DNA of 64,000 nt, taken from assembly GCF_017348835.2 (NCBI RefSeq), contig NZ_CP072312.1. One strand, given 5' to 3'. The position numbers are program-made. This stretch comes from Escherichia coli (GTDB taxonomy: Bacteria; Pseudomonadota; Gammaproteobacteria; Enterobacterales; Enterobacteriaceae). Below, piece by piece: positions 10,001 through 13,000 of the stretch. Numbering within the stretch: the first letter of the stretch is position 1; each line of letters starts with the position of its first letter.

Positions 10001-13000
10001 ATGGGAATTACTGTTGTTTAATGTGATTTAAACTGTGAAATAGTATGGTTTTCAGGTATGAAAATGCCGGGTCTTGCTGCATCCCGATTCTGACTGGAGC
10101 TCTGTTCTGAAGGTATCCAGCTATTCTCCGGTCATCTGCAGCAGTTTTTTGGCATCGTGACTTCTGAGCAACGGAATGCCAGCCTCATAACCTCTTCCAG
10201 ACTAATATCCCGGCGCCAGCGTTCCAGTCGAAAATGACAGGTATCATCCAGCTCTACTGCTGCAACAATACTGAACGAGCGCCGTTCAACGGACGATATC
10301 AGCCCGTACCTGCGGACACAGATACCACCATTTCATATCCACGATTTTGGACAGTCCTTTCATAAAACTGACTTCCCTTTCTGTCAGCAGCGTCTTCTGA
10401 CCTCACCAGTATTCACTCTGCATCACCGATGCCGTATACATGAACAAGACAAATTGGCGTGATGGTTATGTGAAAGAGGAGAAAATGCCGATGTTTCAGT
10501 TAGGTATTGATGTCAGTAAAAACAATCTTGATCTATGCCTCTTACGGGGGACATTAAAGGGAAGATCAAAACTCGTAAGCTAAAAAATACCGCTGATGCG
10601 GCTAAAACTGTGGCAGAGTGGCTTAAAAAGCAATCCAGTGAACTGAACGAAGTTCATATCATCATGGAAGCCACTGGGGTATATCATGAACCTCTAGCTT
10701 ATGGCCTTCACTTTGCTGGCGCTCAGTAGTCCATCATTACCGCTCCCGGTAGCCCGCTCATGCTGGCGCCCCCAGACACGTAGAGTTTCTGGCGTACAGC
10801 TAATCTTTGGGGCAATGAAACAAATTGCCGCCCGTTGTAAGTCATATTCGCCCTGACGCACCAGAATCATACGGACCGTCCGCTAACGGACTTCCGGGGA
10901 AAAACGTGTATTTTTGGTCATCCTGTTTACCTCTTTCTCAGGGAGTTTAGTCTCCTAGATTTCCGAGGCGCGGTTCAGTACCTGTCAGTACCCTATTATC
11001 TGCTAGTCCCTGCCAGTAATTCACCGATAAATGGGACCAACAGCCGATTGAACTCACTGCATTTTATGTGCTCAGGTGTGCTGTCCCTAGCCAGACGTTC
11101 ATTGATCTCATCGCTGTGTTTACGTATATCCTCCTGAGTTAAGGACTGCCACCCTTTCCCGTTAGCGATCCGGTTAACGCCATTCAGTATCGCCTGATCA
11201 TCTGGCAAATCACTGCGGTTACATCTCCTTTTCAGATACCGTGTCGCAGCGGCGATCGACGCCGTTTGTTCTAGCTGTTCGCTCGGGGGAACGGTGGCCT
11301 GCTTACGAGTGGAAGGTACCTGATGGCAACCGGCGACAGTCACCAGGACCAGTAATGACGTGATACAATTTAGTTTTTTCAACGTATTAATCCTCATATT
11401 TTTAACCAGGTATTGTTTAACCGGTTTCCGGTTTACTATAGTCCCGTTATTCTCTGAGCCATTTTTATTACCAGCCCCGGAAACCGAACGCTACATCAAC
11501 AAAAAATGGCATACTCCGCTCAAGGCGAGCCACGGACCAAAAGGCAGCGGCCGGGTAAAATCCGTGGCTGTAACAAAACGCAGCAGTACCGTTATGATTA
11601 ATCCGCTGACTGAGGCAAACAGAAGCACGGAGGGTAATACCTGCCACCCCATCCATGCTCCCAGTGCCGCAGCTAGCTTAAAATCACCGTAGCCTAACCC
11701 TTCTCTACCGGTAACGAAACGAAAAAGCCAGTACAGCCCCCACAGACAGAGATACCCAGAGACCGCCCCCACTACCGCCTCCTCCAAGGGCACTCTCCCC
11801 CCCTGTAAGCTGAATAACAGGCCAAGCCAGAGCAGGGATAACGTCAGCACATCCGGCAGCATAGCCGTACGACAGTCAATAACCGCCAGAACCAACAGCA
11901 TGGCAATAAAAAGCCAGGCAGCAACTAATGTCAGCCCGGGATGAAACCGGCTCGCTGCCAGAATAAATAACACTGAACTCGTTATCTCGACCAGCGGATA
12001 GTAAATAGGAATACGCTCACCACAACAGCGTGATTTCCCCTTCAGAAAGAGATAGCTTAACAGGGGAATGTTATCCCTGATGCTGAGCGGCTGAAAACAG
12101 TAGGGACAATGAGAGCGCGGTATCATCAGGTTAAAGACCGGCTCGGACTCAGGCTCAGAATGTGCCAACAACATCAGCGCTTCACGCCGCCACCGCCTCT
12201 CCAGTATTACCGGCAGACGATGAATCACAACGTTAAGAAAACTACCGATAATGCCCCCTAGCCCCCCTGTGCTGATGAGCCACAACAAATGAAAATCAGC
12301 CGCAAATTCCGGCAACCTGCTCACATATCCTCCTGCTTATCACTCCCATTTTCACGTCAGGCATTAACCTGTAAATCACAAGTGCCCCGGCGAAGTATCC
12401 CTGTTTATGTCATCCCGGGACAAAACCAGCCGATTAACCGTTACATGTCCGGGCTGGTTTCCCTGCGCGACCACATCAAATACCACGGTACGAATACGGT
12501 ACCTGCGATGCAGTTGCGTAAGCCACTGCATCAGCGTATTAAATTCAACTGGTGCTAAGGTAACGGTCAGACGCTCCCCCTGAGGCTGCAATCGGGTGAC
12601 TGATACACCATATGCGGCTGAAGTTTGAGTCACTGCCGCAGATAAACCTAACGGCTCCCCCTGTTCTGGCATACTGGCCTCCCATTTCTTTATGCTGGGT
12701 ATCTGTTGTTTCATCCACTCCACTGTGTATTTTTCACGGGCAATTACAGTCCGCCACTTATCCTCCCGTACCTGCCAGGGCAGCCAGAAGACATAATAGA
12801 CAAAAGCGACAACAAGTAAGGCAACACATCCGGTAAGCAGCCTTCGCTCACGGGGACTAATATACTGCAAACGTTTTTTAAGATCGTTCATTGTTCATTC
12901 TCAGGATCAGACGACTTTCCACCCCGTGCGGCTGCTGCCGTATCTCGCCAGGCTGGATGATATATTTTTCTCCAGCGCTCTGCTGAAAGTGTTCCAGAGC

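Follow-up and report, generated by a model that had tools for sequence, protein, structure and literature searches.

A probable inert recombination scar bordering the stcE-etp module on its replicon side in a lineage of F-like plasmids

The window considered here is a stretch of 64,000 nucleotides of Escherichia coli DNA (contig NZ_CP072312.1) that carries an intact IncFII replicon and, to its right, the etp type II secretion cluster; the short region between the two, which holds no intact gene, raises the question of what it is made of and whether it marks the site at which the etp-stcE block was acquired, as an original prediction made from the sequence alone had proposed. The window belongs to an F-like virulence plasmid of EHEC/aEPEC, of the pO103/pF2_18C_FIB type. 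Between positions 9900 and 11100 it is 100% identical to NZ_CP043544.1 (pF2_18C_FIB), which comes from an aEPEC ST302 strain isolated from a pig and has been described as pO103-like and IS1203-rich (PMC6985150). Outside this interval the arrangements of the two differ because of IS1203-mediated rearrangements. The window harbours five full and two partial copies of IS1203/IS629, the full ones being 97-99.7% identical to the reference copy, and pO55 lacks the one that lies upstream of stcE (25926-27238), which is a recent full copy. The etpO gene, at the edge of the stcE-etp module, is intact and ends with a stop codon at 10996-10998; to its right follow the remainder of the etp cluster and then stcE.

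Window positions 10100-10977 consist of three dead pieces: a DUF2726/PDDEXK pseudogene, a fragment of an IS110-family element and the left end of an IS3-family element (Table 1). In our assessment the region is very probably an inert recombination scar that borders the stcE-etp module on the side of the replicon in a single lineage of F-like plasmids (the pO55, pO103, pO145 and pF2_18C_FIB type). RefSeq (PGAP) annotates three pseudogenes at this place on NZ_CP043544.1, namely an IS3 family transposase, an IS110 family transposase and a PDDEXK family nuclease, and labels two of the three on pO55; the scar is thus already captured by public automatic annotation and represents ordinary plasmid archaeology rather than new biology.

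Table 1. Features of the scar and its immediate neighbours (window coordinates)
Feature	Position	Strand	Evidence
CopA RNA	9417-9506		Rfam RF00042, 86 bits
copB/repA2	9644-9892	minus	ORF list and annotation
DUF2726/PDDEXK-nuclease-like (yihA-type) pseudogene, F-like backbone	~10100-10439	minus	BLAST, alignment, tblastn, Pfam, RefSeq
Pseudogene lesion: 4-bp deletion	10181/82		three-way alignment
9-bp direct repeat CCGTTCAAC, surviving copy at the 85-86-bp deletion site	10283-10291		comparison with pESA134_1 (L007)
Pseudogene lesion: 85-86-bp deletion	10291/92		three-way alignment
Pseudogene lesion: 3-bp deletion	~10302/03		three-way alignment
Pseudogene lesion: 17-bp deletion	10415/16		three-way alignment
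IS110-family (IS621-like) internal fragment, nt 161-445 of ~1378	10439-10722	plus	BLAST, tblastn, Pfam, NCBIfam
IS110 left non-coding end, last 45 nt	10440-10484	plus	alignment to reference element
IS110 transposase codons 1-79	10485-10722	plus	alignment to reference element
IS110/IS3 joint GCTGGCGC, may be microhomology	10715-10722		identity profile either side
IS3-family left end, IS629/IS1203-related	~10723-10977 (homology from ~10715/10728)	minus	blastn, tblastn, RefSeq
Spacer, 18 bp, GTACCTGTCAGTACCCTA, IRL tip to etpO stop	10978-10995		sequence itself
etpO (eptO), last gene of the etp type II secretion cluster, intact, edge of the stcE-etp module	10996-11397	minus	ORF list and annotation of the identical sequence in NZ_CP043544.1

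The piece nearest to the replicon does not derive from an insertion sequence. It had been predicted that 10140-10490 contains broken reading frames only, and this is the case: tblastn recovers residues 53-184 of a 196-residue DUF2726 protein (E=1e-35), spread over three frames and interrupted by stops, after which come 45 nt of an IS110 left end. The attribution of 10140-10439 to an IS remnant, however, has to be given up, as this segment is a pseudogene of the F-like backbone whose frame-corrected translation passes the Pfam model PF10881 with 38.2 bits (cutoff 24.7), compared to 77.1 bits for an intact plasmid homologue. At the nucleotide level the pseudogene is ~90% identical to its intact counterparts: thousands of F-like plasmids match 9900-10416 piecewise at ~90% and have an intact DUF2726 annotated there. 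Its position and orientation relative to copB-tap-repA and the CopA RNA are those of the yihA-type gene of IncFII/F-like plasmids; what distinguishes it is that it has become a pseudogene, with the first ~115 nt (the 5' 38 codons) gone and at least five internal indels, and that IS debris and the stcE-etp module take the place of hha and the thermonuclease 3' end of the canonical locus.

The lesions were located in a three-way alignment of the window with the intact gene of the E. albertii plasmid L002 (CDS 2961-3551) and the E. albertii etp plasmid pESA134_1 (L007). The 3' end of the pseudogene, at 10060-10112, is degenerate. At the site of the 85-86-bp deletion the window retains a single copy of the 9-bp direct repeat, and pESA134_1 has kept 85 bp flanked by both copies of CCGTTCAAC. 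The plasmid pF2_18C_FIB also possesses a second DUF2726 5' fragment beside hha (L005 ~1986-2135), which was considered as the reciprocal half of a gene split at 10439 and rejected: the two pieces overlap by ~34 nt and are different alleles, 99% versus 90% identical to the reference. That region is absent from the window.

To the right of the pseudogene, debris of both IS families that had been named is indeed present over 10440-10977, with homology far beyond chance (tblastn E=3e-37 for the IS110 fragment against an intact relative, and E=4e-35, at 73% identity, for residues 1-70 of the IS3-piece OrfA against that of IS1203). The predicted IS110-family N-terminus of about 80 codons amounts to 79 codons, beginning with an ATG at 10485 instead of 10493 (a second ATG lies at 10491) and losing homology at 10722, and its frame is split by a 1-bp deletion between 10548 and 10549. 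As a reference we used the intact copy L008 1399-2776 (~1378 nt), whose left end was set where intact copies in different contexts (L002, L008) begin to agree and whose right end was set where F leading-region homology begins. The fragment is 92.3% identical to this copy, and such elements occur on other F-like plasmids. Only nt 161-445 of the reference were found anywhere in the window, and the IS110 sequence is therefore a remnant, not a complete element; both IS ends are missing, including the first ~160 nt of the left one.

The family assignment agrees across the models. The frame-corrected translation (80 aa) scores 38.3 bits on Pfam PF01548 (DEDD_Tnp_IS110; cutoff 29) and reaches E=2.3e-14 on NCBIfam NF033542 (IS110 family RNA-guided transposase), which does not reach the full-length cutoff, as is usual when only part of a protein is present; the intact 328-aa relative aligns end to end with the IS621 transposase (PDB 8wt6, E=1.8e-48). 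In common with the IS621-type RNA-guided transposases the fragment encodes the N-terminal DEDD/RuvC-like domain, and its intact relative has a non-coding left end of ~210 nt upstream of the gene, which is shared by the L002 and L008 copies and 160 nt of which precede the start of the homology in the window. IS621-type elements encode their bridge (guide) RNA in this left non-coding end; an Rfam search of the intact copy gave no match in its left end. In contrast to such elements the fragment has lost its two termini, the C-terminal Transposase_20 domain (PF02371, present in the intact relative) and all but 45 nt of the left non-coding end, and its frame is broken.

The third piece had been described as a degraded IS629-like end at 10735-10980 running up to etpO. 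An IS3-family end is really there, albeit on the minus strand and with coordinates of ~10715/10728-10977: the piece shows the family's 5'-TG terminal inverted repeat followed by orfA, with the tip of its IRL at 10977 (TGAACCGCGCC..., reading leftwards TGAACCGCGCCTCGG...). Rather than extending up to etpO, it leaves an 18-bp gap before the stop codon of that gene, and an alignment shows that pO157 Sakai lacks 16 of the 18 spacer bases. With IS629/IS1203 it shares the IRL architecture (TGAACCGC...), the ribosome-binding region and an OrfA start ~55 nt in, at 10921-10919 in the window; it differs from them in having neither orfB nor IRR and in a stop at OrfA codon 13 (an in-frame TAG at 10885-10883). 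About 70 OrfA codons are left, a target duplication is absent, and the match to Pfam HTH_Tnp_1 is weak (18 bits versus a cutoff of 24.1).

Its identity to nt 1-248 of IS1203/IS629 (~250 nt) is 87.2%, with homology ending at about nt 248-263, against 97-99.7% among the full IS1203 copies of the same window. By ISfinder convention isoforms share roughly at least 95% nucleotide identity. Because of this gap the piece is, as judged from its sequence, a separate IS species rather than a decayed IS629. No closer intact relative was found above ~87.5% in PLSDB or in the complete E. coli genomes, and an exact 20-mer probe had no match in 100,044 GTDB species-representative genomes. Seven base pairs (TGGCAGT, after ~10726) are missing from the window and pF2_18C_FIB only and are present in all other carriers.

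How were the three pieces joined? At 10439 the sequence ...CCGTATAC runs into ATGAAC... with a 1-bp overlap, and this joint does not coincide with an IS terminus, since the IS110 fragment that begins there is internal to the element. At the second joint the identity profile changes across the 8-mer GCTGGCGC: the 46 nt to its left are 96% identical to IS110 and 39% to IS629, the 8-mer itself matches IS110 at 8/8 positions and IS629 at 6/8, and the next 66 nt are 22-47% identical to IS110 and 77-89% to IS629. The microhomology was judged against the IS629 counterpart GCTGACGT, a stand-in that may differ from the true parent IS. Here two IS interiors are fused, in a manner that looks like illegitimate recombination or deletion and not like transposition.

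The structure thus reads as follows. DUF2726, which normally lies between hha and copB, is cut at 10439, where it is fused to the IS110 interior, and at 10715-10722 the IS110 fragment passes into the interior of an IS3-family element related to IS629, of which only the IRL survives. An origin by deletion or illegitimate recombination is most likely because neither internal joint is an IS terminus. IS elements would first have accumulated at the module edge, and deletions or illegitimate recombination would have followed, possibly with microhomology of up to 8 bp at one joint and with the 1-bp overlap at the other; the backbone segment nuclease 3'-hha-DUF2726 5' would have been lost in the same process. 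Thereafter the scar was inherited as a unit while small deletions continued, among them the 85-86-bp loss between the 9-bp repeats, from which E. albertii is free, and the 7-bp loss confined to the window and pF2_18C_FIB. No plasmid with an intact version of either IS at the scar site was found.

The scar is found at 97-100% identity in 47 PLSDB plasmids, among them pO55 of O55:H7 CB9615, pO103 (NC_013354), plasmids of O145:H28 and two from E. albertii. Of 5,426 complete E. coli genomes, 50 contain it, and eptO is annotated under nearly every one of the matches listed. The window-type etpO is found at ≥95% identity in 51 plasmids and all or part of the scar in about 50, and on these counts the scar and this etpO allele go together. 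In some relatives a fresh IS1203 at window ~10116-10119 has removed the replicon side, with the scar still attached to etpO.

Comparison of gene orders places the scar at the border of the inserted block. The etp-negative F-like plasmids have hha-DUF2726-copB-tap-repA, and the tra end of pF2_18C_FIB reads traX-hydrolase-finO-ANR-nuclease-hha. Along one strand of pO55 the order is traX-finO-ANR'-nuclease', then IS3-family debris, then stcE-etpC..O, then IS3'-IS110', and finally DUF2726'-copB-repA'. In pO55 the stcE-etp block and its IS debris thus stand exactly where nuclease 3'-hha-DUF2726 5' is found in the canonical F order, and because the block replaces that segment the scar is one edge of the inserted block in this lineage. 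To this extent the proposal that the scar marks the site of etp-stcE acquisition stands, and the comparison with etp-negative plasmids bears it out; the proposal does not extend to how or when the block arrived, as the joints are not transpositional. The scar is most likely a deletion scar and not a transposition footprint, and since its internal joints are not IS ends it provides no direct evidence on the mechanism or the timing of the arrival.

The module of pO157 (E. coli O157:H7 Sakai) has different neighbours. Only about half of pO55 aligns with pO157, and the genes that they share are highly divergent (Zhou et al., PMC2806823). The pO157-type module is a diverged copy, ~80-83% identical to the window at its ends (~83% in the match that spans the IRL end and etpO), and homology between the two modules begins ~232 bp upstream of stcE and ends 2 bp beyond the stop codon of etpO. 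As in the window, an IS3-family IRL lies immediately downstream of etpO in pO157, but 2 bp past the stop instead of 18 bp. Of its bases, 53/54 match active IS629; after these 54 bp an IS911-like element interrupts it, beyond which follow the ehx genes and no IncFII replicon; upstream of stcE pO157 carries the ecf/msbB operon. Being near-identical to active IS629 and located 16 bp from the position of the window IRL, the pO157 IRL is, to judge by its sequence, an independent and recent IS629 insertion. The pO157 module thus has other neighbours on both sides, which confines the scar to a single plasmid lineage.

The two diverged stcE-etp lineages each bear an independent IS629-type IRL, at +2 bp and +18 bp from the etpO stop. 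It is conceivable, if improbable, that the 20 bp immediately downstream of etpO are a preferred landing site for IS3-family elements, or that the module was once a mobile unit bounded by IS3-family elements, with the 87% identical IS as the last trace of an otherwise unsampled IS of the donor.

Could an IS have been the vehicle of the module? An IS3-like element, possibly paired with another next to stcE, might have moved stcE-etp as a unit resembling a composite transposon, with the scar as its direct remnant. The IRL, which is the one true IS terminus of the scar, points towards etpO from a distance of 18 bp, IS3-family debris is also present upstream of stcE in pO55, and the pO157-type and window-type modules cease to be homologous 2 bp after the etpO stop, where pO157 has its IS3-type IRL. 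The debris on the stcE side of pO55, however, comes from a different IS3-family species, with an OrfA resembling that of IS911 and a DDE fragment unrelated to it, and gave no blastn match to IS629/IS1203; the pO157 IRL bears the marks of a separate recent event; and target-site duplications are not identifiable. This scenario strikes us as rather unlikely, and in its strict form, a composite transposon with the same IS on both sides, it was rejected on account of the different IS in pO55. A stronger contender, although we doubt it too, is that the IS fragments have nothing to do with the acquisition of the module, and were inserted later into an existing etpO-DUF2726 junction and trimmed by IS-mediated adjacent deletions. 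The numerous IS1203/IS629 copies of the window testify to high activity on these plasmids, relatives carry fresh IS1203 insertions inside the scar, and pO157 has acquired its own IS629 beside etpO. Yet no plasmid was found that joins the window-type etpO to the backbone without the scar (51 versus about 50), and later insertion differs from the favoured account, in which IS elements accumulated at the module edge and were then fused by deletion, in timing only.

Finally, the remnant might still serve a function, be it as a truncated IS110 non-coding RNA, a small ORF, or a terminator or promoter for etpO or copB. Two candidate small ORFs can be listed, one of 64 aa at 10535-10729 and one of 58 aa at 10694-10870. 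The 97-100% conservation of the scar across about 50 plasmids could be taken to favour function, but the flanking DNA is equally conserved, and the conservation is therefore due to recent common descent and not to selection. Further points speak against a role: the ~160 nt of the IS110 left end that correspond to the bridge-RNA region of IS621-type elements are gone, the listed ORFs are out-of-frame or truncated pieces of pseudogenes, and the lineage-specific deletions of 7 bp and 85-86 bp are tolerated. Rfam returned nothing in the scar, the CopA RNA being the only match in the region; a promoter scan of the scar gave no promoter-like sites, and a terminator scan a single terminator-like site, which is within chance expectation. 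Searches for internal repeats revealed nothing meaningful, and base composition across 7000-27500 was uninformative. Since the scar contains neither an intact ORF nor a complete IS, lacks the bridge-RNA region and shows promoter and terminator signals no stronger than chance, none of it would be expected to work, and we regard a surviving function as very improbable.

The scar is of use as a lineage marker: it tells the stcE-etp module of the pO55/pO103/pO145 type apart from that of the pO157 type, and the small deletions within it (85-86 bp and 7 bp) order the plasmids that carry it relative to each other. In the scar-bearing lineage, the stcE-etp module occupies the finO-copB interval of the F-like backbone.

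Five full and two partial copies of IS1203/IS629, 97–99.7% identical to the reference copy, are distributed through the window, where they bracket most of the plasmid modules, and for this reason the window is not collinear with pF2_18C_FIB, its closest database relative. The latter plasmid carries two DUF2726 alleles, one a fragment beside hha that is cut by IS30 and shares 99% identity with the common allele, the other a 90%-identity fragment beside copB. These differing alleles therefore show pF2_18C_FIB to be a mosaic plasmid, built from two F-like backbones.

Coordinates of IS elements and associated features in the window and in related plasmids
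Feature	Sequence	Coordinates	Strand	Remarks
IS1203/IS629, full copies	window	32-1344, 4176-5485, 25926-27238, 34352-35664, 45025-46334		
IS1203/IS629, partial copies	window	33943-34351, 35657-36565		
CopA antisense RNA, IncFII replicon	window	9417-9506	+	Rfam RF00042, 86.4 bits
Second DUF2726 fragment (5' end)	pF2_18C_FIB (L005)	~1986-2135 (NZ_CP043544.1 ~5986-6135)		absent from window
Region with the IS629 left inverted repeat (IRL), downstream of etpO	pO157 Sakai (L006)	14202-14320		
Short AT-rich tandem repeat, upstream of stcE	pO55 (L011)	3815-3985		ORF translations
Intact IS110-family (IS621-like) element	NZ_CP067305.1 (L008)	1399-2776		
Intact IS110-family (IS621-like) element	E. albertii plasmid (L002)	~3948-5325		

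The IncFII replicon adjoining the scar, the decayed IS junction that separates it from etpO, appears intact in the window's lineage, whereas in pO55 the repA beside the scar is annotated as a partial pseudogene. The tandem repeat of pO55 lies ~350–480 bp upstream of stcE and reiterates the peptide motif YYLLLIT in ORF translations; Tandem Repeats Finder, run on the equivalent stretch of the window (25200-26000), detected no array of this kind. In pO157 Sakai, the IRL begins 2 bp past the stop codon of etpO, matches active IS629 at 53 of 54 positions and extends for 54 bp before an IS911-like element interrupts it. It is a separate IS3-family insertion, 16 bp from the IRL of the window.

Among complete E. 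coli genomes, at least 61 contain a full-length match to the IS110-family (IS621-like) element. The non-coding left end of the intact copies spans ~210 nt and has no match in Rfam. On F-like plasmids a truncated ssb gene of the leading region adjoins the intact copies, and their recurring position suggests that insertion into the leading region is site-specific and possibly RNA-guided.
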